Shown piece after piece: positions 53,569 through 64,000 of a stretch of DNA of 64,000 nucleotides (position 1 is the stretch's first letter; the number at the start of each line of letters is the position of its first letter). Under the pieces are notes generated by a model. The model was not told the origin of the DNA, did not search any database, and was given only the letters and a program-made list of their open reading frames with translations. Source of the stretch: Acidimicrobiales bacterium (GTDB lineage Bacteria; Actinomycetota; Acidimicrobiia; Acidimicrobiales; Bog-793). The position numbers and the translations under genes were made by a program. Where the stretch lies: positions 27,116-91,115 of the forward strand of contig DATLTN010000061.1 in NCBI GenBank assembly GCA_035533595.1. The letters are read 5' to 3'.

Positions 53569-54657
53569 CTAGAGGTGGATGTGCAGGGTGGACTCGATCG
53601 CGCGCACGACCGCGGCGGCCGCCCGGTCGTCGCCGGCGGGCGGGGCGATGTGCACGCCGTCGGCATCGCGCACCTCGACGAGGTTCCCCGAGGCGTCGGG
53701 GAGGAACTGTGCGTAGCTACCCGTCGGGCTCGCGAAGAGGTTGTAGATCGAGACGTAGCTGGCGTTCGGGTTCCCCGAGCAGGCGGCGGCGAAGGCGGCG
53801 TTGAGGCTCGGCGCGACGCTCCCCGCGAGCCCCGAGGAGGGGGACATGATCGGCAGCCCGACCCAGAACAGGTGCGCCCCCGAGGCGGTGACGAGGTCGA
53901 CCATCTGGCGGAGCCGCGCCGTGTACTGCTGCAGCCAGAAGCTGCTGCCGGGGTCGGCGCGCCGGCCCTCGGCGATGAAGGGCTGCCAGTCGTTGCCGCC
54001 GAAGAGCGCCACCACGACCTGGGGGTGGTAGCGCGCGAGCTCGACGGAGAGGTTCGCCGGCCAGTCGTAGTAGGCGGGGTTGGCGAGGCCGGTGTTGCCG
54101 ACCGACGCGCTCTGCAGCTCGACGCTCCTCGTCGTGCCGAGCAGGTCCTGTAGCCCGTAGCCGAGGTCGATGCCGATCGAGTCGCCGACGTCGAGCACCG
54201 AGAGGGGGTGCGCGGCGCTCGGCTGCAGGAAGGAGTTCGCCGTCGTCGGCGGGCTCGCGGCGCCCTTCGCCCTGCCGCCCCCGTGCCCGGCGGTCGCCGG
54301 CGGGAGCGCGATCACCCCCGGCGTCACCCCGGCCCTCCCGCCGAGGGCGCGGTTCGCGCCGTCGACGACGCGGTCGAGGCCGAAGAACTCCTGGACGCGG
54401 GCGATCGGCGTGAGGATCGCGAGCGCCACGCTGCGGCGGGCGCCGAGCGGCGAGGCGCCGGCCGAGGTGTAGAGCTGGCGGGCGTCGAGGGCGAGCCAGA
54501 TCCCGAAGGCCGCGAGCGAGACGAGGAGGGCGCGACCCGCGGCGAGGGTGCGCCCCTCCGGCGCGACGTACGGCGCGCGCCGTCGCCCGCCGGGAGCGCG
54601 TCGGCGTGACGGGTGGCGGGGCGGGCGGGCCGAGGGCGCTCGGCGCTCGGGGACCAT
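53569..54657 (-). CDS. membrane-anchored SGNH/GDSL-type hydrolase or acyltransferase (DUF459-like)
   Basis: Last 362 aa of ORF 53569..55965. TM anchor ALLVSLAAFGIWLAL, block I LDVGDSIG, block III FGGND, C-terminal DADGVH. The ATG overlaps the MBOAT stop by 1 nt. Confidence 0.75.
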   Translation of the reverse strand: MVPERRAPSARPPRHPSRRRAPGGRRRAPYVAPEGRTLAAGRALLVSLAAFGIWLALDARQLYTSAGASPLGARRSVALAILTPIARVQEFFGLDRVVDGANRALGGRAGVTPGVIALPPATAGHGGGRAKGAASPPTTANSFLQPSAAHPLSVLDVGDSIGIDLGYGLQDLLGTTRSVELQSASVGNTGLANPAYYDWPANLSVELARYHPQVVVALFGGNDWQPFIAEGRRADPGSSFWLQQYTARLRQMVDLVTASGAHLFWVGLPIMSPSSGLAGSVAPSLNAAFAAACSGNPNASYVSIYNLFASPTGSYAQFLPDASGNLVEVRDADGVHIAPPAGDDRAAAAVVRAIESTLHIHL

Positions 54658-56093
54658 CAGAACTTGTAGTAGATGAAGGGCGCGACCCCCGGGGGGCCGA
54701 GCGTCGTGATGAGCAGCAGGCCGCAGCCGAGGAACGCCGCCTTGGCGCCGGCGTGCATCGCCGCGAAGCGCACCTGCACCGCCTCGGCGAGCCCCTTCGG
54801 CAGGTACTGGAGGGCGATCGAGCCGACGATCGTCGCCACGACCGGCAGGCGGAACAGCGGTGCTGCCTCCCCCCAGGTCGTGAAGAGGCGGCGCAGCAGG
54901 GTGAAGGCGGTCCCGAAGGTATCGGCGCGGAAGAAGAGCCAGCCGAGGCAGACGACGTGGAAGGTGCACAGCCTCCCGAGGAGGAGCGCGGCGCGCCCCG
55001 TCGGCTCGGGCGCGCGGCCCTGCGCGACGCGCCGCTCGCGGTGGAGGTGCCCGGCCACCTGCCCGACACCGTGGATCCCGCCCCAGGCGACGAAGGTCCA
55101 CGCCGCCCCGTGCCAGAGCCCCCCGAGGAGCATCGTGATCATGATGTTGCGGGCCACCTGCCGGCGCGGGCCGCGGTTGCCCCCGAGGGGGATGTAGAGG
55201 TAGTCGCGCAGCCAGCTCGACAGGGTCATGTGCCAGCGCCGCCAGAAGTCCTGCAGCGAGCGCGCCGCGTAGGGGCGGTCGAAGTTCTGCGGGAAGCGGA
55301 AGCCGAGCAGCAGCGCGACCCCGATCGCGATGTCGGTGTAGCCGCTGAAGTCGCAGTAGATCTGCACCGCGTAGCCGTAGACGGCGAGGAGGATCTCCGG
55401 CGCGGTGTGCACCGTCGGGTTGTTGAAGACGGGGCCGACGATCGCCGAGGAGACGTAGCTCGAGATCACGACCTTCTTGAAGAGGCCCCCCATGATCAGG
55501 TAGGCGGCCTCGGGGAACTCGACCTTGCGCGGGTCGCGCAGCCGTGAGCGGGCGATCTGCGGGAGCAGGTCGCGGCCGCGCACGATCGGCCCGGCGATGA
55601 GGTGGGGGAAGAAGGCGACGTAGACCGCGACGTCGAGGAAGGGCGCGGGCTCGAGGTCGCGGCGGTAGATGTCGATCACGTAGGAGAGGCCCATGAAGGT
55701 GAAGAAGGAGATCCCGACGGGGAGGGTGACGCTGAGGGGCGGCAGCGGCGTGGCGTGCAGCCCCAGACTGTGCAGCGCGTTGTCGAAGGTCACCGACAAG
55801 AAGCCGTAGTACTTGAACCAGCCGAGCAGCGCGAGGTGGCCGACGACGCTCATCACGAGCGCGCCGCGGCGGGCGCGCCGCGTCCGCCCCTGCGCGACGG
55901 CGAGGCCGCCGACGGCGCTGATCAGCGTGGAGACAGCGAGGAGGAGGACGAAGCGCCAGTCCCACCAGGCGTAGAAGACGTAGCTGGCCGTGAGGATGAA
56001 CGGCTTCCAGCGGCGTGGCGAGGGGGAGAGGAGCCAGTTGCCGAGAAAGACGACGGCGAAGAAGATCGCGAAGTCGATCGTCGGGAACAGCAC
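54657..56093 (-). CDS. MBOAT family O-acyltransferase (AlgI/DltB-like)
   Basis: 478 aa, polytopic. FWRRWHMTLSSWLRDYLYIPLGGNR contains the conserved MBOAT His. Confidence 0.9.
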   Translation of the reverse strand: MLFPTIDFAIFFAVVFLGNWLLSPSPRRWKPFILTASYVFYAWWDWRFVLLLAVSTLISAVGGLAVAQGRTRRARRGALVMSVVGHLALLGWFKYYGFLSVTFDNALHSLGLHATPLPPLSVTLPVGISFFTFMGLSYVIDIYRRDLEPAPFLDVAVYVAFFPHLIAGPIVRGRDLLPQIARSRLRDPRKVEFPEAAYLIMGGLFKKVVISSYVSSAIVGPVFNNPTVHTAPEILLAVYGYAVQIYCDFSGYTDIAIGVALLLGFRFPQNFDRPYAARSLQDFWRRWHMTLSSWLRDYLYIPLGGNRGPRRQVARNIMITMLLGGLWHGAAWTFVAWGGIHGVGQVAGHLHRERRVAQGRAPEPTGRAALLLGRLCTFHVVCLGWLFFRADTFGTAFTLLRRLFTTWGEAAPLFRLPVVATIVGSIALQYLPKGLAEAVQVRFAAMHAGAKAAFLGCGLLLITTLGPPGVAPFIYYKF

Positions 56094-56164
56094 TGAGCGG
56101 AATTCCTTGGCTACGGCGTCGGCGCCTCCCGCCGGACGGTGCCCGACTGTAGGTGACGGTCAGA

Positions 56165-56180
56165 AGTGCACCCCGTCACC
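56165..56180 (+). promoter_or_regulatory. CRP/FNR-type half-palindrome AGTGC-N6-TCACC upstream of whiB
   Basis: GTG-N8-CAC core; 7 of 10 matches to TGTGA-N6-TCACA. Lies 205 nt upstream of the whiB GTG in a GC-poorer region. A TAGCAT hexamer is at 56241-56246. Confidence 0.25.
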
Positions 56181-56384
56181 TTTCCCTGATCAGCACCAGA
56201 ATTTTCTCGTTACATCCTTGAAACGATGCGGCGGCCCCCCTAGCATGTTTCCGCCTTAGGGCTTGATCTCGGACTTCCGGGGTCGCTCACGGGACTGCTC
56301 GGTGGGGGGGCGTCGGTCTTGTGCAGGCGCGCGCTCGCGCACGCCGCCTGATGGCCGAGTGTCGCTCAGAGCAGAGGAGGCATC

Positions 56385-56678
56385 GTGGCCCTCACATGGA
56401 ATCGAACGGTGGAATGGGACAGCGACGAGTGGCGCAACAGCGCCGCCTGTCGGGACACTGATCCGGACCTTTTCTTCCCGATCGGCACCACCGGCCAGGC
56501 GATCGAACAGATCGAGTCCGCGAAGGCGGTGTGCGAGACCTGCGAGGCGCTGGAGCCCTGTCTCGCCTTCGCCCTCGCGACGAACCAGGAGTCGGGAGTC
56601 TGGGGCGCAACCTCCGAGGAGGAGCGCCGCAAGCTGCGCAAGAGCTGGCTCGCCGAGCAGCGCCGCGCCGCCAGCTGA
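56385..56678 (+). CDS. whiB: WhiB family transcriptional regulator (Fe-S, WhiB1-like context)
   Basis: Four Cys (C-x27-C-x2-C-x5-C), GVWGA turn, basic tail RRKLRKSW. GAGGAGG SD before the GTG. Confidence 0.93.
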   Translation: MALTWNRTVEWDSDEWRNSAACRDTDPDLFFPIGTTGQAIEQIESAKAVCETCEALEPCLAFALATNQESGVWGATSEEERRKLRKSWLAEQRRAAS

Positions 56679-56707
56679 GGCCGCTCCGCCCGCTCGTCGG
56701 CCGGGCA

Positions 56708-56730
56708 GCCCGCGCCTGAGCGGCGCGGGC
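56708..56730. terminator. 9-bp perfect hairpin between convergent whiB and pdtaS
   Basis: GCCCGCGCC-TGAGC-GGCGCGGGC. Confidence 0.45.
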
Positions 56731-56734
56731 GTCG

Positions 56735-58246
56735 TCAGCTCGGGCCCTCGCTGCGCTGCAGCGGGATCGCGAGGCGCACCGCGGCGCCGTCCGCGCTCGT
56801 GACGGTGATCGAGCCCCCGAGCTGGCTGCGCACGAGGTCGCGCACGATGGCGAGGCCGAGGCTCGAGGTGCGGTCGATGTCGAAGTCGGGGGCGAAGCCG
56901 CTCCCGTTGTCCTGCACCGTGACGTCGAGCACGCCGTCGTGGGTCGCGAGGTCGACGGTGATCCGCGCCGGCAGCGCGTGCTCGCCGTTGAAGGCGTGCT
57001 CGACGGCGTTCTGCAGGAGCTCGGCGATGACCACCGCGAGCGGCGTGGCGACGTCCGCGGAGAGGTCCCCGACGTCCCCGTTCACGGCGACCTCGACGGC
57101 GTGACCCGAGAGGTCGGCGTCGCGGGTGAGGTGGATGAGCGCAGGGATGATCTCGTCGAAGCGGACCTGCTCCCCCGGCTCGCGGGCGAGGATCTCGTGC
57201 ACGAGGGCGATCGCCGTGATCCGCCGCTCCGCCTCGAGGAGGGCGTCCCGGGCGCTCGGGTCCCCGAGGCGACGCGACTGCAGGCGCAGCAGCGAGGAGA
57301 TCGTCTGCAGGTTGTTCTTCACCCGGTGGTGGACCTCGCGGATCGCGGCGTCCTTGGACAGCAACAGGCGGTCGCGGCGCCTCAGGTCGGTGACGTCGCG
57401 GAGCAGCACCACCGCGCCCGTCACCTCCGCCTCCTCGATGAGCGGGATGCAGTGGACGATCACCGTCACCTCGCCGCGGCGCTCGATCTCGTCGATCGCC
57501 GGCACCTGCCGCTCGAAGGCGCCGCGCACCGCCGGTGAGTCGACGCCGAGCTCCCCGAGGGTCGAGCCGATGATCTGGGTGAGGATGCCCATGCGGTGCA
57601 GCGCGTTCACCGCGTTCGGCGAGACGAAGGTGACCCGCTCGTCGGAGTCGAGGACGATCACCCCGTCGCCGGCGCGCGGCGCCTCCTCCATCATCTCGTC
57701 CTCGGCGAAGAAGGGGAACAGCCCCTCCGCGACCATCGCCGCGAGGCGGCTGAAGAGCTGCAGGTAGACGCGCTCGAGGCCGCCGGCGCGCCGCCCCCCC
57801 GTCGGCGACCAGACGCGCAGGAGGACCGCCACCACCTCGGCTTTGAAGCGGACCGGGATCGCGATCGCCCGCACCGCGCCGAGGGTGCGGTGCTCGGAGC
57901 CCTCCATCTCGGCGCTCGCGCCCCCCTGCCAGGCCTCGGCGACGACCGGCCACTCGTCGGCGCCCACCAGCTGGCCGACGACGTCGAGTTGCACGAGGGT
58001 CTGGCTCGTCGTCGGGCGCATCTGGCCGAAGATCACGAAGTGCAGGCCGAGCAGCCCCGCCTCGGCCGCCTCCCCCCCCGCCGCGCCGACGGCGAGCGAG
58101 TACTGGTCGACGGGGACGAAGAGCAGCAGGTCCGAGAAGGAGAGGTCGGCGAGCAGGCCCCAGGTGGCCATCAGCCGTTCCAGGTGCTGGCGGGCGGCGG
58201 TGTCGAGGCCGGTGAACTCCTGGGCCAGCTGGCGGGGCTCGCTCAC
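56735..58246 (-). CDS. pdtaS: cytoplasmic GAF-PAS sensor histidine kinase, PdtaS-like (HisKA_2/HWE-type)
   Basis: Last 503 aa of ORF 56735..58672. H-box EVHHRVKNNLQ, N-box LLQNAVEHAF, G-box DNGSGF. No TM helix. GTG 58246 overlaps the upstream stop (GTGA). Confidence 0.82.
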   Translation of the reverse strand: MSEPRQLAQEFTGLDTAARQHLERLMATWGLLADLSFSDLLLFVPVDQYSLAVGAAGGEAAEAGLLGLHFVIFGQMRPTTSQTLVQLDVVGQLVGADEWPVVAEAWQGGASAEMEGSEHRTLGAVRAIAIPVRFKAEVVAVLLRVWSPTGGRRAGGLERVYLQLFSRLAAMVAEGLFPFFAEDEMMEEAPRAGDGVIVLDSDERVTFVSPNAVNALHRMGILTQIIGSTLGELGVDSPAVRGAFERQVPAIDEIERRGEVTVIVHCIPLIEEAEVTGAVVLLRDVTDLRRRDRLLLSKDAAIREVHHRVKNNLQTISSLLRLQSRRLGDPSARDALLEAERRITAIALVHEILAREPGEQVRFDEIIPALIHLTRDADLSGHAVEVAVNGDVGDLSADVATPLAVVIAELLQNAVEHAFNGEHALPARITVDLATHDGVLDVTVQDNGSGFAPDFDIDRTSSLGLAIVRDLVRSQLGGSITVTSADGAAVRLAIPLQRSEGPS

Positions 58247-59160
58247 GGCCCGATCGCCACGTCGCGCCCCTCGCGGGCGCGAAAGGCGCGCAGCTGCTCG
58301 TAGCCGGCGGCGCGGGCGAGGGCGGCGAGCTCGGCGGAGCGGTCGGCGACGTCGCCGGGGCCGTGGCTGTCCGAGGCCGTCGTCACCGGCACCTGGCGGG
58401 CGGCGAAGGCGGCGAGCAGGCTCGCCGAGGGGTAGGCCTCGGCGGCCGGCTTGCGCAGCCCCGCCGAGGAGATCTCCGCCGCCAGCCCCGAGGTGGCGGC
58501 GGCCTCGGCGATGCGCGCCTCGCACTCCTCGCGCGCCGCCGCCGAGGGGCGGATGCCGGCGACCTTCACGAGGTCGGGGTGCGCGAGCACGTCCACGGCG
58601 CGCGTCGCCGCCAGCTCCTCGAGCGCCCCGGTGTACTCCCGCCAGACCGCCTCGCCGCCGCGGCGCGACCACTGCGCCATCGCCACCTCGTCCTCCAGGT
58701 TGTCGAACATCCAGGTGCCGAGCCAGTGGACCGAGCCGAGGAGGACGTCGAAGGGATAGCCGGCGAGGAAGTCCGCCACCGCCGCCATCTGGCCGGGGTA
58801 GTAGTCGACCTCGAGGCCGAGGAGGACCGGGAGGCCCGCCGCCTTGGCGGTGAGCACCGCCTCCACGTAGTCGTCGAGCTCGGCGGTCGCGTGGTGCTCG
58901 AAGTAGGAGGAGATCGAGGTCGCGAGCGCCCGCTCCGGCTCGTCGCGCCAGAAGTCGCCGACGAGGCCGCGCACCGCGGTGAAGCGGAAGAGGTGCTCGG
59001 TGAGGGCGATCTCGGCGACGCCCCGTTCCGCGGCGCGCTCGCAGTAGACGCGCAGCCGCTCGAGGCGCTGCTCCCCGGCCTCGGCGCGCTCGCGGTGCGG
59101 CCAGAGGTGGACGTGGTAGTCGAGCACCCCGACCAGGCTAACGGTCCCGCCCCGGCCCAC
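58243..59160 (-). CDS. PHP-domain phosphatase (histidinol-phosphatase HisJ-like)
   Basis: LDYHVHLW, TEHL, GLEVDY, GSVHW and ASDSH metal-ligand motifs. The real start may be GTG 59127 (VLDYHVH). Confidence 0.8.
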   Translation of the reverse strand: MGRGGTVSLVGVLDYHVHLWPHRERAEAGEQRLERLRVYCERAAERGVAEIALTEHLFRFTAVRGLVGDFWRDEPERALATSISSYFEHHATAELDDYVEAVLTAKAAGLPVLLGLEVDYYPGQMAAVADFLAGYPFDVLLGSVHWLGTWMFDNLEDEVAMAQWSRRGGEAVWREYTGALEELAATRAVDVLAHPDLVKVAGIRPSAAAREECEARIAEAAATSGLAAEISSAGLRKPAAEAYPSASLLAAFAARQVPVTTASDSHGPGDVADRSAELAALARAAGYEQLRAFRAREGRDVAIGP

Positions 59161-59166
59161 CCGGGA

Positions 59167-59217
59167 GGCCGGGCGATCGGGCCGGGCGATCGGGCCGGGC
59201 CGATCGGGCCGGGCGGG
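59167..59217. repeat. tandem repeat, about 3.8 copies of a 13-nt unit GGCCGGGCGATCG
   Basis: 59167-59179 and 59180-59192 are identical. 59193-59206 has one inserted C. 59207-59217 is partial. Intergenic, between the ArsA-like stop and the PHP start. Confidence 0.75.
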
Positions 59218-60417
59218 CTAGTCGAAGAGGTGCTCGGCGATCTCCAGCAGGCCGCCGAGGTCGGTGACGTCGCGCATCAGGTGCGGTACCCGCACGACCT
59301 GCTCGGCCTCGGCCGCGAGCTCGTCGATCAGCTGCTGCTCGCGCGTCGCCACCTGCGCGAAGTTGCAGAAGCCCGCGCCCACCTCGGCGAGCACCCGCGC
59401 CAGGCGCTCGCCGTCGGGGAAGCTTCCCGGCAGTGCCCGGGAGATTCGCTCGGCGAGCGGCGCGGCGTCCCCCTGCAGCGCCTCGGCGGTGCGCAGCGCG
59501 CCGCGGGCGGCGAAGGCCGCCGGCAGGGCCTTGTTCGCCACCACGAGGCCGAGGTGCAGCCGCCGCTCGGCGAGCGCACCGACGAAGGCGCGCGCCTCGC
59601 GGACCGGGACGGGCTCGGGGCTCGTCACCACCATGAAGGTCGTCTGCGGCTCGCGCAAAAGCGCCGAGACGGCGTGCGCGCGCGCGACGAAGCCCGGGTA
59701 CATCGACTGGAAGAGGTTGAAGAAGACCGCCAGCTCCTCGAGGAGCTGGCTGCCGAGGATGCGGTCGGCGAGCTGGGTGAACGGGCGCGAGGCGAGGCCG
59801 ACGAGGCGCGAGCGCGCCGGCGCAGTGAGCCAGCGCAAGAGCCGCGAGGAGAAGAACTCGGCCATCTTCTCCGGGGCGTCGACGAAGTCGAGGGCGCCGA
59901 GCGCGGGGGGCGTGTCGACGACGATGAGGTCGTAGCGCCCCTCGGCGTAGAGCTCGTAGAGGCGCTCCATCGCGATGTACTCGTGGCTGCGCGCGAAGCG
60001 CTGGGTGAGGTTGACGTAGAAGGGGTTGGCGAGGATCTGCCCGGCGACCTCGCGGCTCGGCGCGTGGCGCGTCACGAGGGCGTCCCAGGACTGCTTGGTG
60101 TCGAGCATCGCGGCGAAGAGCTCGCCCTTCGGGCGGGTCGCGCCGAACGCCGCCGCCGGCACGGGCCGCGCCTCGTCGCCGAGGCCGTCGAGGCCGAGGG
60201 CATCGGCGAGTCGGCGCGCCGGGTCGACGGTGATCACGAGGACGCGCACCGGGGCGCGCAGCGCCGCCCCCGCGGCGAGCGCCGCGGTCGTCGTCGTCTT
60301 GCCGACCCCGCCCGCCCCGCAGGCGATGAGGACCTCCTTGGTCGACAGCAGCCCCTCGAGGAGGAGCGAGGGCGCGCTAGCGCGCGCCCCCCGGCGGGGC
60401 GCCTCGGCGGGGCTCAC
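59218..60417 (-). CDS. ArsA/Get3-like P-loop ATPase, subunit B of a pair
   Basis: P-loop CGAGGVGKTTT: GKT is intact and the first Lys of KGGxGKT is replaced by Ala. VVDTPPALGA stands in place of DTAPTGH; 399 aa. Confidence 0.85.
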   Translation of the reverse strand: MSPAEAPRRGARASAPSLLLEGLLSTKEVLIACGAGGVGKTTTTAALAAGAALRAPVRVLVITVDPARRLADALGLDGLGDEARPVPAAAFGATRPKGELFAAMLDTKQSWDALVTRHAPSREVAGQILANPFYVNLTQRFARSHEYIAMERLYELYAEGRYDLIVVDTPPALGALDFVDAPEKMAEFFSSRLLRWLTAPARSRLVGLASRPFTQLADRILGSQLLEELAVFFNLFQSMYPGFVARAHAVSALLREPQTTFMVVTSPEPVPVREARAFVGALAERRLHLGLVVANKALPAAFAARGALRTAEALQGDAAPLAERISRALPGSFPDGERLARVLAEVGAGFCNFAQVATREQQLIDELAAEAEQVVRVPHLMRDVTDLGGLLEIAEHLFD

Positions 60418-60449
60418 GAGGCGGCGCTCACGAGGCGGCGCTCACGAGG
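60413..60449. repeat. 2.6 copies of a 14-nt direct repeat CTCACGAGGCGGCG at the junction of the two ArsA-like genes
   Basis: 60413-60426 equals 60427-60440. 60441-60449 is partial. Each copy carries TCAC (GTGA on the coding strand). Confidence 0.8.
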
Positions 60450-61392
60450 AGGAGAGCTCCTCGCCGAGCAGCTCGGCGACGCGGTGCACGGCACGCGGCC
60501 CGTGCGCCCGCCCGAACAGGTACGGGAGGTGCAGCAGCGGCACCCCAGCCGGCAGCGCGGCGGCGAGGCGGGCGAGGTGGCTGGCGCCGGCGCGGCGGAT
60601 CCCGACGGCGAGCGCCGCCCCCTCGAGGACGGCGGCGACCTCGCCGCCGAGCGCCTCCTCGACAAGGAGGAGGGCCTCGGGGCGGCGCAGCGCCTCGAAG
60701 TCCTCCTCCTCGCCGCGGCTGAACAGCTCGGGAAGGACGCGGTTGGCGACCACCGCGGCGAGCGCCACCCCGGTCTCCTCCTCGAGGCGACCGGTGAGCT
60801 CGAGCGCCTCGTTCACCGGCATCTCCTCGGGGGTCGCGACGACGACCACCCCGGTGCGCGCCGCGTCGCCGAGCAGCTCGAGCATCCACTGCGTCTCGGA
60901 GCGCACCGGCCCGACGCGCACGAGCTCGGAGAGGGCGACGGGCGCCGCGAAGTGCCCGACGATGTGCCCCGACGCGGTGGCGTCGACGACGACGAGGTCG
61001 TAGTGGCCCTCGCGCACCTCGTAGCAGAGCTTGCCGATGGTGAGCACCTCGCGCACGCCGGGCGCCGCGGCGGCGACGAAGTCGAGCGCCTGCGCGACGG
61101 GTGCGAGGCGGGTGAAGACCGGGAGGTGCAGGTGGAGGCGGAGGTACTCGCCGAGCGCCGCCTCGGTGTCCATCACCATCGCCGAGAGGCGGGGGGCGAC
61201 GGCGCGGGGCGTGTAGGAGAGGGGGCCGCACTCGAGGGCGCGCGCGAGGTCGCCGCGCGGCTCCATCTCGCAGACGAGGGCCCGCTTGCCCGCGCCGCTC
61301 GCGAGGATGCCGAGGGCGCTCGCCACGGTGGTCCTCCCGACCCCGCCCTTGCCCGTGACGAACAGCAGCCGGTGGTCGAGGAGGCCGCTCAC
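60442..61392 (-). CDS. ArsA/Get3-like P-loop ATPase, subunit A of a pair
   Basis: P-loop TGKGGVGRTT: the first Lys is kept and the canonical GKT Lys is replaced by Arg. VVDATASGH resembles DTAPTGH; 316 aa. Confidence 0.85.
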   Translation of the reverse strand: MSGLLDHRLLFVTGKGGVGRTTVASALGILASGAGKRALVCEMEPRGDLARALECGPLSYTPRAVAPRLSAMVMDTEAALGEYLRLHLHLPVFTRLAPVAQALDFVAAAAPGVREVLTIGKLCYEVREGHYDLVVVDATASGHIVGHFAAPVALSELVRVGPVRSETQWMLELLGDAARTGVVVVATPEEMPVNEALELTGRLEEETGVALAAVVANRVLPELFSRGEEEDFEALRRPEALLLVEEALGGEVAAVLEGAALAVGIRRAGASHLARLAAALPAGVPLLHLPYLFGRAHGPRAVHRVAELLGEELSSS

Positions 61393-61417
61393 GGCCGCGG
61401 GGTGGGGCGCGCCCCCG

Positions 61418-61651
61418 CTACGACGCCCCGAAGCCGACGCGGCGGGCGTCGTCGGCGCCGATCTCGACGTAGGCGATGCGCGCCACCGGGACCGCGACCT
61501 GGCGGCCCCGCTTGTCGGTCAGCCACAGCACCCCGTCGCTGTCGGCGAGGGCCTTGTCGATGCGCCCGTGCACGGCGTCCTGGCTCTCGCCTTCGGCGAG
61601 CTCGATGTCGAGCTCTCTCGGTGCCTGGATGATGCCGATCCGCAGGTCCAC
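61418..61651 (-). CDS. DUF3107-like small protein (family name from memory)
   Basis: Last 77 aa of ORF 61418..62512. VDLRIGIIQAPRELDIEL...VLWLTDKRGRQVAVPVARIAYVEIG. AAAGGAG SD 6 nt before GTG 61651. Confidence 0.7.
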   Translation of the reverse strand: MDLRIGIIQAPRELDIELAEGESQDAVHGRIDKALADSDGVLWLTDKRGRQVAVPVARIAYVEIGADDARRVGFGAS

Positions 61652-61790
61652 GTGCGCTCCTTTTTCGTCGGCCGCCATCGTAGACAGAGGGGGAGGCGGC
61701 GCCGACCCGCCGGGCGCCGGCGTGGGCGGCCGCGAGACGCGAAATCCCTGCTGACGGTAGGATGGGGGTGAATCGACGAGGGGAGGCACC

Positions 61791-62306
61791 ATGTGGGCGA
61801 TCGCCGGCGTGCTGCTCGGACTTGTCGCCGTCGCGTCGCTCGTCGGCTTCCACGCCGGGCCGCACAGCCACGCCTTCGCCGGCGGGGTCGGCCTCGTCGC
61901 CGCGGTGTGGCTGGTGGTGATGGCCCTCACCGGGCAGTCGGGGCCGCTGCTCTGGCTCTTCTTCGGCGCCGACGTCGCCGTCTCCGCCGCGGTCGGCACC
62001 GCGGCCTGGAAGGGGCTGCAGGCCGCCCACCAGGTCCCCGCCGTGCAGCCGACGCGCCTCGAGGGCGCGCACGGCCACGCGCTCGTCGACCTTAACCCCG
62101 AGGGCACCGTGCGGGTGCGCGGCGAGACCTGGTCGGCGCGCTCGCTGAACGGGCGCATCGCCGCGGGGAGCGAGGTGCAGGTGATCAACGCCAAAGGGGT
62201 GCGCCTCGAGGTGTGGGGCGAGGGCAACGTCGGGCACCCGCCCTTCGCCCTCGGTGATGCCGGGCTCGACGACAGCTCGGACAATGGGAGGACGGCTTCA
62301 TCATGA
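61791..62306 (+). CDS. NfeD family membrane protein
   Basis: Hydrophobic N-terminal helices plus a C-terminal OB-like segment (G.A.VDL.P.G.VRV.GE.W.A). ATGA overlap with the SPFH gene. Confidence 0.8.
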   Translation: MWAIAGVLLGLVAVASLVGFHAGPHSHAFAGGVGLVAAVWLVVMALTGQSGPLLWLFFGADVAVSAAVGTAAWKGLQAAHQVPAVQPTRLEGAHGHALVDLNPEGTVRVRGETWSARSLNGRIAAGSEVQVINAKGVRLEVWGEGNVGHPPFALGDAGLDDSSDNGRTASS

Positions 62307-63262
62307 TTGGGATCATCGTCGGCGTGGCGGTCTTCGCCGCCCTCATCGGCCTCGGGACCTCCGTACGGATCGTCCGCGAGTACCAGCGCATCGTGCTCTT
62401 CCGCCTCGGGCGCGTCATCGGGGTGAAGGGGCCCGGGCTGATCTTCCTCAACCCGATCACCGACCGCACCTCGCTCGTCGACCTCCGCGAGCAGTACCTG
62501 GAGGTCCCCCACCAGACCGCGATCACCGCGGACAACGCGCCGATCTCGATCGACTTCATCATCTTCTACAAGGTCGTCGACGCCTCGATGTCGGTCGTCG
62601 CGGTGCAGAACTTCGCCGGTGCGGCGCTCAACGTCGCGGCGACGACGCTGCGCAGCGTCGTCGGCGACATGCCGCTCGACGACGTGCTCTCCAAGCGCGA
62701 CGACATGAACGCGCTGCTGCGGGTGCGCCTCGACGAGGTCACCGAGCGCTGGGGCGTGAAGGTCACCAACGTCGAGGTCCGCGAGGTCAACCCGCCGCCT
62801 GGTGTCCTCGAGGCGATGACCCGCCAGATGTCGGCCGAGCGGACCCGCCGCGCGCAGGTCACCGAGGCCGAGGGGCAGAAGTCGGCGGCGATCCTCTCCG
62901 CGGAAGGTGAGCGGCAGGCGAAGATCACCCTCGCCGAAGGCCAGCAGAAGGCGGCGATCCTCGCCGCCGAAGGTGAGCGGCAGTCGGCGCTCTTGAAGGC
63001 GCAGGGCTTCTCGGGCGGCCTCGAGACGATCCTCGGCGTGGCGAAGGGCCTCGACGAGAACACCCTCCTCCTCCAGTACCTGGAGACCCTGAAGCAGATC
63101 GGTGCCTCGCCCTCCACCAAGCTCGTCGTCCCGATGGAGCTCGGCGGGCTGCTGAACGGGCTGCGGGCCCTCATGCCCGCCGCCCCCTCGAGCAACGGCG
63201 CGAAGGCCCCCGAGGCAAAGGTCGCCGAGCCGAAGGCCGTGGAGGGCGCGACGCGCGACTGA
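62303..63262 (+). CDS. SPFH/band-7 (stomatin-like) protein
   Basis: N-terminal TM helix, VREYQR.V.FRLGR, TADNAPISIDF, and a Glu/Ala/Gln-rich coiled-coil tail. Confidence 0.92.
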   Translation: MIGIIVGVAVFAALIGLGTSVRIVREYQRIVLFRLGRVIGVKGPGLIFLNPITDRTSLVDLREQYLEVPHQTAITADNAPISIDFIIFYKVVDASMSVVAVQNFAGAALNVAATTLRSVVGDMPLDDVLSKRDDMNALLRVRLDEVTERWGVKVTNVEVREVNPPPGVLEAMTRQMSAERTRRAQVTEAEGQKSAAILSAEGERQAKITLAEGQQKAAILAAEGERQSALLKAQGFSGGLETILGVAKGLDENTLLLQYLETLKQIGASPSTKLVVPMELGGLLNGLRALMPAAPSSNGAKAPEAKVAEPKAVEGATRD

Positions 63263-63274
63263 GCGCCGCGGCGG

Positions 63275-64000
63275 TCAGGCCCGCCGGCCCCCCGGCACGT
63301 CCACCCCGCGCGGCAGCCGGGCGATCGGCCAGCCGAGGCGCTCGACCGCGAGGTCAAAGGCGTAGCGGTCGGTCATCCCGGCGACGTAGCTGACGGCGGC
63401 CGTGGTGCGCGCCGTGTCGTCGGCGTCGGCCGGGAGGGCGCCCGCCATCGCCTGCGGGCGGCTCGCGAAGTACTCGACGAGGGCGCGCAACACCGCGATC
63501 ACGCTCGCCGCCTGCGCGACGGACTCCTCGCGGAGGTAGACCCGCTCGTAGTTGAAGCGGCGGAACTCGGCGAGGCCGTCGGCGAGGGGGGCGGGCATCA
63601 GCACCTCGCCGGCCGCCGCGCTCGTCGTGACGAGGGCGTCGACGAAGGCCCCGAGCTGGTCGCTGCGGCGACTCCCGCAGCGCTCGCGCACCACCGCGGG
63701 CAGCTCGCCCGCGGCGACGACCCCCGCGGAGACGGCGTCCTCGAAGTCATGGCAGACGTAGGCGATGCGGTCCGCCCAGCTCACCACCTCCCCCTCGGGG
63801 GTGCGCGGCGCGGGGCGGGACCAGGAGTGGTTGCGGATCCCGTCGGCGACCTCGGCGGTGAGGTTGAGCGAGGCGAGGGCGACGTCGGCGCCGAAGACGG
63901 CGTGGTCGAAGCCCCCCTCGAGGTAGGGGGTGAAGGCGTCCTCGCTGGCGTGGCCGCCGGGGCCGTGGCCGCAGTCGTGGCCGAGGGCGATCGCCTCGGC
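63275..64000 (-). CDS. dgt: dGTPase-like HD-domain triphosphohydrolase (N-terminus beyond the window end)
   Basis: The frame stays open to position 64000. My translation gives ...ALGHDCGHGPGGH...SWADRIAYVCHDFEDA...YVAGMTDRYA. Confidence 0.82.
   Translation of the reverse strand, partial: AEAIALGHDCGHGPGGHASEDAFTPYLEGGFDHAVFGADVALASLNLTAEVADGIRNHSWSRPAPRTPEGEVVSWADRIAYVCHDFEDAVSAGVVAAGELPAVVRERCGSRRSDQLGAFVDALVTTSAAAGEVLMPAPLADGLAEFRRFNYERVYLREESVAQAASVIAVLRALVEYFASRPQAMAGALPADADDTARTTAAVSYVAGMTDRYAFDLAVERLGWPIARLPRGVDVPGGRRA

Follow-up and report, generated by a model that had tools for sequence, protein, structure and literature searches.

The 64,000-nucleotide (nt) stretch of DNA analysed here (the window; Acidimicrobiales bacterium, contig DATLTN010000061.1, positions 27,116 to 91,115 of the forward strand) carries a three-gene cluster on its minus strand, in which two genes for related ATPases follow a small DUF3107 gene. 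The DUF3107 gene (61418..61651, 77 amino acids, Pfam PF11305) is the first of the cluster and is the orthologue of Mycobacterium tuberculosis Rv3208A/TB9.4. It is followed by a bagA-like gene (60442..61392, 316 amino acids), which encodes a Get3/ArsA-fold ATPase subunit bearing the signature Lys of the deviant Walker A motif (subunit A), and by a bagB-like gene (59218..60417, 399 amino acids), which encodes the subunit that holds the full set of cis catalytic motifs (subunit B). The three genes are co-transcribed, and the region of the A and B genes has a G+C content of ~75%. A preliminary description of the window had placed these open reading frames and their motifs on the minus strand, had assigned both ATPases to the ArsA/Get3 class, and had noted a PHP-domain gene and a pdtaS gene downstream. 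All of this is borne out: the reading frames and motifs read as described, both proteins match Pfam ArsA_ATPase and have the corresponding fold matches, and Pfam identifies the two downstream genes.

To which members of this large class the pair belongs is clear from both sequence and structure. In M. tuberculosis, Rv3679 and Rv3680 are known as BagA and BagB, for ‘bacterial Get3-like proteins A and B’, and the structure of their heterodimer has been solved (PDB 6BS3, 6BS4 and 6BS5). The best NCBIfam match of subunit A is to NF053622 BagA (1.5e-39, 136 bits) and that of subunit B is to NF053621 BagB (2.2e-85, 287 bits); likewise, the best matches in the Protein Data Bank (PDB) are chain 6bs3_A (Rv3679) for A, at 1.6e-26, and chain 6bs3_B (Rv3680) for B, at 1.4e-57 over residues 26-397. 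An AlphaFold2 model of A (predicted local distance difference test, pLDDT, 93.7; predicted template modelling score, pTM, 0.91) has 6bs3_A as its top PDB match, with template modelling (TM) scores of 0.83/0.80 over 329 columns, compared to 0.72 for 6bs3_B and ~0.7 for Get3/TRC40. Thus, each subunit finds its own counterpart, and the suggested orthology to Rv3679/Rv3680 is confirmed. The pair are Acidimicrobiales orthologues of BagA and BagB, and represent a known system in a new lineage rather than a new machine. A and B probably assemble into a heterodimeric ATPase; the indirect evidence is the strict co-occurrence of their genes, the natural A-B fusions and the M. tuberculosis co-crystal 6BS3, in which both chains are present. 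Secondary citations link mycobacterial BagAB to tolerance of glycerol/methylglyoxal and nitric oxide stress and of some antibiotics, and the cellular role of the pair described here is presumed to be similar, namely stress protection.

Comparison with the M. tuberculosis proteins reveals both shared and altered features. In both organisms the genes are adjacent and co-oriented, the A gene coming first; A-type genes of BagAB encode ~320-340 amino acids and B-type genes ~390, compared to 316 and 399 here. B shares with Rv3680 its GAGGVGKTT P-loop, which has no signature Lys, and its DTPP switch II; the two differ in switch I, which reads DPAKRLA in Rv3680 and DPARRLA here. Rv3679 resembles A in its KGG sequence and in a glutamate-containing switch I (EVE versus EME here). 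However, a structure-based alignment gives only ~28% identity between A and Rv3679, and where M. tuberculosis BagA has GKGGTGKST and DAPPTGR, A has GKGGVGRTT and DATASGH.

The two genes are tightly arranged. Gene order was counted in Acidimicrobiia loci, the only class that the genome scan yielded, using as denominators the loci with enough flanking sequence; A immediately precedes B in 74/74. In the window, B begins 24 nt after A, with no change of strand or frame, and the A stop codon and eight further codons separate the two. This junction is occupied by a tandem repeat (60406..60449, minus strand; GGCGGCGCTCACGA; 14-nt unit, 3.1 copies, 96% matches) that spans the TGA stop of A and the GTG start of B. 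Because A and B share one frame, the loss of a single stop codon would fuse them, and natural A-B fusions do occur in relatives (P0230, P0323 and P0359), one of them on three independent contigs. A second tandem repeat, with a 13-nt unit (GGCCGGGCGATCG, 3.7 copies), occupies the stretch that separates bagB from the PHP gene, at 59167-59215.

Examination of subunit B shows a P-loop (60292..60318, minus strand) that reads G34-A35-G-G-V-G-K40-T-T, with A35 at the signature position and an intact Walker Lys, K40, as placed by the homologue and locus alignments. HMMER aligns A35 with the Ala of the Rv3680 GAGGVGKTT sequence. Position 35 is P, S or A and never K, both in the close homologues (118/118) and in the Acidimicrobiia loci used for motif counts (81/81), and BagB-type proteins without the signature Lys are also present in two more distant lineages, as well as in Rv3680 itself. 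K40 and the switch I sequence TVDPARRLA (60205..60231, minus strand, from T63), in which D65 is the equivalent of ArsA D45 and Get3 D57, are each kept in all 118 close homologues. The Walker B/switch II motif of B (59896..59916, minus strand, from D168) reads DTPPALG and does not contain the Gly-His pair; D168 and DTPP are invariant, while the residues that follow vary around the consensus [ST][RL]N (DTPPSRN in Rv3680). B therefore carries all three marks of the Rv3680 type: G[APS]GGVGKTT, a DPA[RK]RLA switch I and a DTPP switch II. Judged from these alignments, the loss of the signature Lys is a defining trait of the whole BagB family that is already present in the solved M. tuberculosis protein.

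Subunit A shows a different pattern. Its P-loop (61327..61353, minus strand), read from the sequence and aligned to the GKGGxGK[ST] of Rv3679, TRC40 and ArsA, is G14-K15-G16-G17-V18-G19-R20-T21-T22. In HMMER alignments to Rv3679, Methanothermobacter thermautotrophicus TRC40 and both ArsA halves, K15 (codon at 61348-61350) lies opposite the signature Lys and R20 lies opposite the Walker Lys; in alignments to solved structures, E44 takes the position of the DPA-motif catalytic Asp. The R20 codon, AGG at 61333-61335, is one transition away from AAG. Accordingly, A reads KGGVGRTT where the Rv3679 type has the two-lysine KGGxGK[ST], and in this pair neither P-loop holds both lysines of the deviant Walker A motif: A has only the first and B only the second, so that both are present only in the pair. 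The Walker B/switch II motif of A, DATASGH (D137-H143; 60964..60984, minus strand), aligns with the DTAPTGH of ArsA and TRC40; D137 and G142 are invariant and H143 is kept in 82-94% of sequences, while switch I is variable among homologues. K15 is invariant in every set: 119/119 close homologues, 76/76 representatives by column statistics, 107/107 by motif scan, and 69/69 of the A partner genes read across the 81 loci. Of the 119 close homologues, 115 have K at position 20. Only positions 15, 20 and 121 are near-invariant lysines in the close-homologue alignment, and of these only position 20 ever changes; A, which contains 3 Lys and 25 Arg in total, keeps K15 and K121 and has changed position 20.

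How widespread is this change? The Arg-bearing protein is found in identical copy on three contigs, and GKGGVGRTT also occurs in four other proteins from separate data sets, so it is not a sequencing error. Nonetheless it is rare, with Arg at this position in 5/120 close homologues and 0/69 partner genes. The A P-loop could be read in 107 of the sequences that represent 50%-identity clusters; of these, 88 have K, 16 R, and one each Q, T and S, and a neighbour-joining tree suggests about six independent losses of the A Walker Lys. These lineages nevertheless keep G14, K15, G16, G17, G19, T/S21, D132, D137, G142, H143 and N217. For two of the Arg variants (P0302 and P0300), the neighbourhood shows the same DUF3107-A-B-pdtaS-whiB order, and the partner B is intact. 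In addition, there is an ‘orphan’ Arg variant outside the operon context, a BagA-like protein with GKGGVGRTT (P0379; locus L083, 5001-5918) that has no BagB or DUF3107 neighbour and is flanked by cytochrome c assembly and glycine-cleavage genes. By sequence comparison, the lineage-specific Lys-to-Arg change in A is the only unusual feature of the pair, being rare and confined to a shallow clade.

Several candidate correlates of the change were examined and discarded. Coupling between the Arg in A and the rare GAGG P-loop of B is contradicted by locus L084, which pairs an Arg-type A with GPGG, and by locus L001, which pairs a Lys-type A with GAGG. Compensation for the Arg in A by the missing Arg of the DTPP[ST]RN sequence in B is not tenable either, as the residue varies in many Lys-type pairs. 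The NCBIfam model NF047398, ‘KGGVGR-motif variant AAA ATPase’, is not the family of A, which scores 16.3 bits against a cut-off of 90; other Arg-variant BagA-like proteins score ≤28 bits. A literature search returned nothing on a ‘KGGVGR’ motif, and searches with the names BagA and BagB matched unrelated words only.

These patterns have mechanistic implications. In MinD, ParA, NifH, Get3 and ArsA, the signature Lys works in trans, on the far side of the dimer interface. If the same holds here, K15 of A would reach across the interface into the B site. B would itself supply every cis catalytic element, namely K40, D65 of the DPA switch I and D168 of Walker B, and has no signature Lys of its own; the B site, completed by A K15, would then be the sole fully equipped catalytic centre. 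The site in A would receive no trans Lys in any member of the family, and it is likely a nucleotide-binding site that hydrolyses slowly or not at all and that has a regulatory or dimer-locking role. The lineage in the window has gone one step further, with the Walker Lys of A changed to Arg by a single AAG-to-AGG transition. The recurrence of R, Q, T and S at position 20 in proteins that keep the rest of the pocket suggests that A can do without hydrolysis but not without its pocket and K15; unlike decay, retention of the pocket speaks for nucleotide binding that continues or for a structural need to position K15. We therefore consider it reasonably probable, although far from certain, that the pair are BagAB orthologues that form an asymmetric dimer, in which the B site is catalytic and the A site does not need to hydrolyse.

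The preliminary description had proposed an asymmetry of this kind, with one composite competent site and one crippled site arising from reciprocal losses of a key lysine, and had called for an alignment of both positions. Part of this proposal stands. Conservation of K15 in A and of K40 and DPA in B, together with the consistent lack of Lys at position 35, agrees with a composite site, and the loss of the signature Lys in B is conserved in the alignment; this is, however, a property of the family, and the support for it comes from sequence comparison. What does not survive is reciprocity as a conserved feature of the pair: the loss in B is family-wide, whereas position 20 of A is variable, even in the closest relative, an outcome that the preliminary description had itself named as counting against it. 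Asymmetry thus appears to be a family property, to which the Arg in the window adds an extra, shallow and possibly near-neutral step.

Logic of this kind has precedents in other ATPases. McdA-type ParA ATPases, which position carboxysomes, have a P-loop that lacks the signature Lys, as B does, and form a DNA-binding homodimer that uses a substitute Lys from elsewhere in McdA; in contrast, BagB pairs with a dedicated partner that keeps the signature Lys. In heterodimeric ABC transporters (TAP1/2 and TM287/288) and in F1 alpha/beta, one site hydrolyses while the other binds and regulates. Their paired-site logic is like that proposed for BagAB, although the folds and interfaces are unrelated and the likeness is one of analogy only.

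Several observations weigh against the proposed asymmetric BagAB dimer and deserve to be considered together. Both proteins miss the NCBIfam equivalog cut-offs, with 136 bits versus 400 for BagA and 287 versus 521 for BagB; because these models (ATPseBagAMYCTU and ATPseBagBMYCTU) are those of M. tuberculosis and the window is from Acidimicrobiia, the shortfall reflects distance and not exclusion. Intact ATP-binding motifs are reportedly needed in both Rv3679 and Rv3680, which could mean that A hydrolyses ATP, although a binding-only role for A also fits. Furthermore, the Arg is not fixed even in the clade to which the window belongs. L001, the nearest relative for which flanking sequence is available (76% identical in A and 72% in B), has Lys, encoded by AAG, and sits within the Arg clade on the neighbour-joining tree, so the change may be nearly neutral and not adaptive; the trees themselves are neighbour-joining and unbootstrapped. 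The possible neutrality of the change leads to an explanation that we regard as unlikely but deserving of attention, in which the change in A is nearly neutral, driven by GC pressure, and both sites behave as they do in Lys-bearing relatives. The single transition, the high G+C content of the region, the strong excess of Arg over Lys in A, the Lys of L001 and the lack of Arg among the 69 partner genes are all as it would predict. However, few residues of P-loop nucleoside triphosphatases are normally as constrained as the Walker Lys, which makes the tolerance of R, Q, T and S informative; the substitution recurs in several deep lineages, and K15 and K121 of the same protein never change. Moreover, near-neutrality leads to largely the same conclusion as dispensable hydrolysis at the A site.

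It is less probable still that Arg20 stands in for the Walker Lys, leaving A fully competent and the dimer with two active centres. The strict conservation of the rest of the A pocket in Arg lineages could be explained in this way, and NF047398 shows that a KGGVGR motif exists in other ATPases, but the score of A against that model is far too low for membership. Engineered Walker K-to-R mutants of P-loop nucleoside triphosphatases generally bind nucleotide and hydrolyse it poorly, the Q, T and S that also occur at position 20 cannot mimic Lys, and no family member provides the A site with a signature Lys in trans. Least probable of all, and in our view very doubtful, is an identity with known ArsA or Get3 machinery: a two-gene version of the arsenite-pump ATPase ArsA, or a bacterial Get3 that inserts tail-anchored proteins. 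The Pfam ArsA_ATPase matches of both subunits, the automatic annotation as ‘anion-transporting ArsA/GET3 family ATPase’ and the good fold matches to Get3/TRC40 structures are consistent with this idea. There are indeed real similarities: Get3/TRC40 has a deviant Walker A with a signature Lys, as in A; ArsA (Escherichia coli R773 and Leptospirillum ferriphilum) has the same fold with two non-equivalent homologous nucleotide sites at an A1/A2-type interface, an architecture that the A-B fusions of relatives mirror as a pseudo-dimer; and A keeps a motif like the DTAPTGH of ArsA. Despite this, KGGVGKT[ST] is complete in each half of ArsA whereas A and B each lack one Lys, B has no DTAPTGH, and the scores are low both for the ArsA model TIGR04291 (48.8 bits for A and 31 for B, cut-off 650) and for the Get3 model TIGR00345 (89.6 and 64.9 bits, cut-off 135). 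Get3 is a homodimer built on a CxxC zinc site with two equivalent nucleotide sites, in contrast to a BagAB-type heterodimer in which one subunit has no signature Lys, and neither A nor B contains a CxxC motif. No ars genes were seen among the flanking open reading frames (window 55000-64000) or in the gene calls of six loci, and in sequence as in structure nothing matches better than BagA and BagB.

The BagAB pair is embedded in a neighbourhood that is itself conserved, beginning with the DUF3107 gene. Its product matches PF11305 with 86.9 bits (cut-off 27, E = 1e-24), its GTG start at 61651 lies six bases past an AAGGAG Shine-Dalgarno sequence, and an identical 77-amino-acid protein is annotated at NCBI in an Acidimicrobiales metagenome-assembled genome. 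DUF3107 is an actinobacterial signature protein (Rv3208A/ML0814/SCO5169), and crystal structures of Rv3208A (TB9.4) show a hexadecamer (7RUR) and an octamer (7RUS). The AlphaFold2 model of the window's protein (pLDDT 79) superposes on these with TM scores of 0.74-0.77 normalised to the query and 0.87-0.90 normalised to the target, at 40-45% identity. A relationship of DUF3107 to Hfq has been proposed (bioRxiv 10.1101/026195); we rejected Hfq orthology, as there is only a weak fold echo (Foldseek E ~0.3, TM 0.44) and the clear match is to Rv3208A.

Downstream of B, two more genes of the neighbourhood lie on the minus strand. A PHP-domain gene, like HisJ-type histidinol-phosphatases, is called at 58243..59160 by its Pfam PHP match; its start is probably the GTG at 59127 (MLDYHVHLW), as inferred from L001, and its score against NCBIfam PRK07328 (182.7 bits) falls just under the cut-off of 202. 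It is followed by a pdtaS-type gene for a cytosolic histidine kinase with the Pfam architecture GAF_PdtaS-PAS-HisKA_2-HATPase_c (56735..58237, start approximate) and by a convergent whiB-family gene on the plus strand (56385..56678; Pfam Whib, 83 bits). DUF3107 lies immediately upstream of A in 73/73 loci, pdtaS lies within 7.5 kb downstream of B in 53/54, and a convergent whiB is found within 7.5 kb in 48/54, while the PHP gene stands between B and pdtaS in half (33/66). The order DUF3107-A-B-(PHP)-pdtaS/whiB is therefore a conserved Acidimicrobiia arrangement. The preliminary description had likened this order to the mycobacterial Rv3679/Rv3680 locus, a comparison that fails: DUF3107 corresponds to Rv3208A and pdtaS to Rv3220c, both of which are far from Rv3679/Rv3680 in the M. 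tuberculosis genome, whereas in the window they are adjacent to bagAB. Here, Mycobacterium and Streptomyces gene order was taken from locus numbers in papers, not from DNA. A whiB gene is near bagAB in both places, that of M. tuberculosis being, by locus number, whiB4/Rv3681c. The whiB-pdtaS adjacency of the window is the same as that in M. tuberculosis, where pdtaS (Rv3220c) adjoins whiB1 (Rv3219).

Other features of the region were also recorded. A sigma-70-like promoter match lies ahead of whiB (56218-56246), and beyond it, on the minus strand, is an open reading frame like MBOAT-family membrane O-acyltransferases (54657-56093), overlapped by a long open reading frame (region 53569-56093) whose C-terminal part is SGNH/GDSL-like; in L001, too, whiB is followed by an MBOAT gene. 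In L001 the PHP and PdtaS sequences are called as one 801-amino-acid product, probably due to a frameshift in a nanopore assembly. On the other side of the cluster, an NfeD-SPFH (Band 7) gene pair (61791-63262) is divergent from the DUF3107-bagAB operon; the closest relatives, L001 and L002, are the only others in which this pair was seen. Just upstream of DUF3107, two other loci have an Mrp/ApbC-type Fe-S carrier ATPase with FeS_assembly_P and ParA matches and a deviant Walker A (L082, 2522-3679; L084, 3600-4745), while L001 has, a few genes further upstream, a ParA/CbiA-type ATPase with no FeS_assembly_P match (690-1811). Within the bagB coding sequence, a terminator-like hairpin with a T-rich tail is present on the minus strand at 59729-59750; the region has two such matches where 0.9 are expected by chance, and the hairpin is probably fortuitous.

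Taken at its fullest, the proposal extends to an obligately asymmetric BagAB with one catalytic centre, composed of the B P-loop and the A Lys in trans, and with the A pocket serving as a non-hydrolysing sensor or latch; the R, Q, T and S replacements in several Acidimicrobiia lineages would be its evolutionary proof, and the complex would perhaps work with the clustered oligomeric DUF3107 protein and with PdtaS/WhiB. We put this forward tentatively, as a possibility that we would not yet expect to hold in full. If it is true, the clustering with DUF3107 and PdtaS/WhiB would point to the client or pathway of mycobacterial BagAB. The conservation pattern, in which the signature Lys of A is fixed, the Walker Lys of A is replaceable and the motifs of B are fixed, provides a concrete hypothesis on which site does the chemistry. 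In addition, linkage to DUF3107, pdtaS and whiB across the class suggests candidate partners for two uncharacterised M. tuberculosis proteins.

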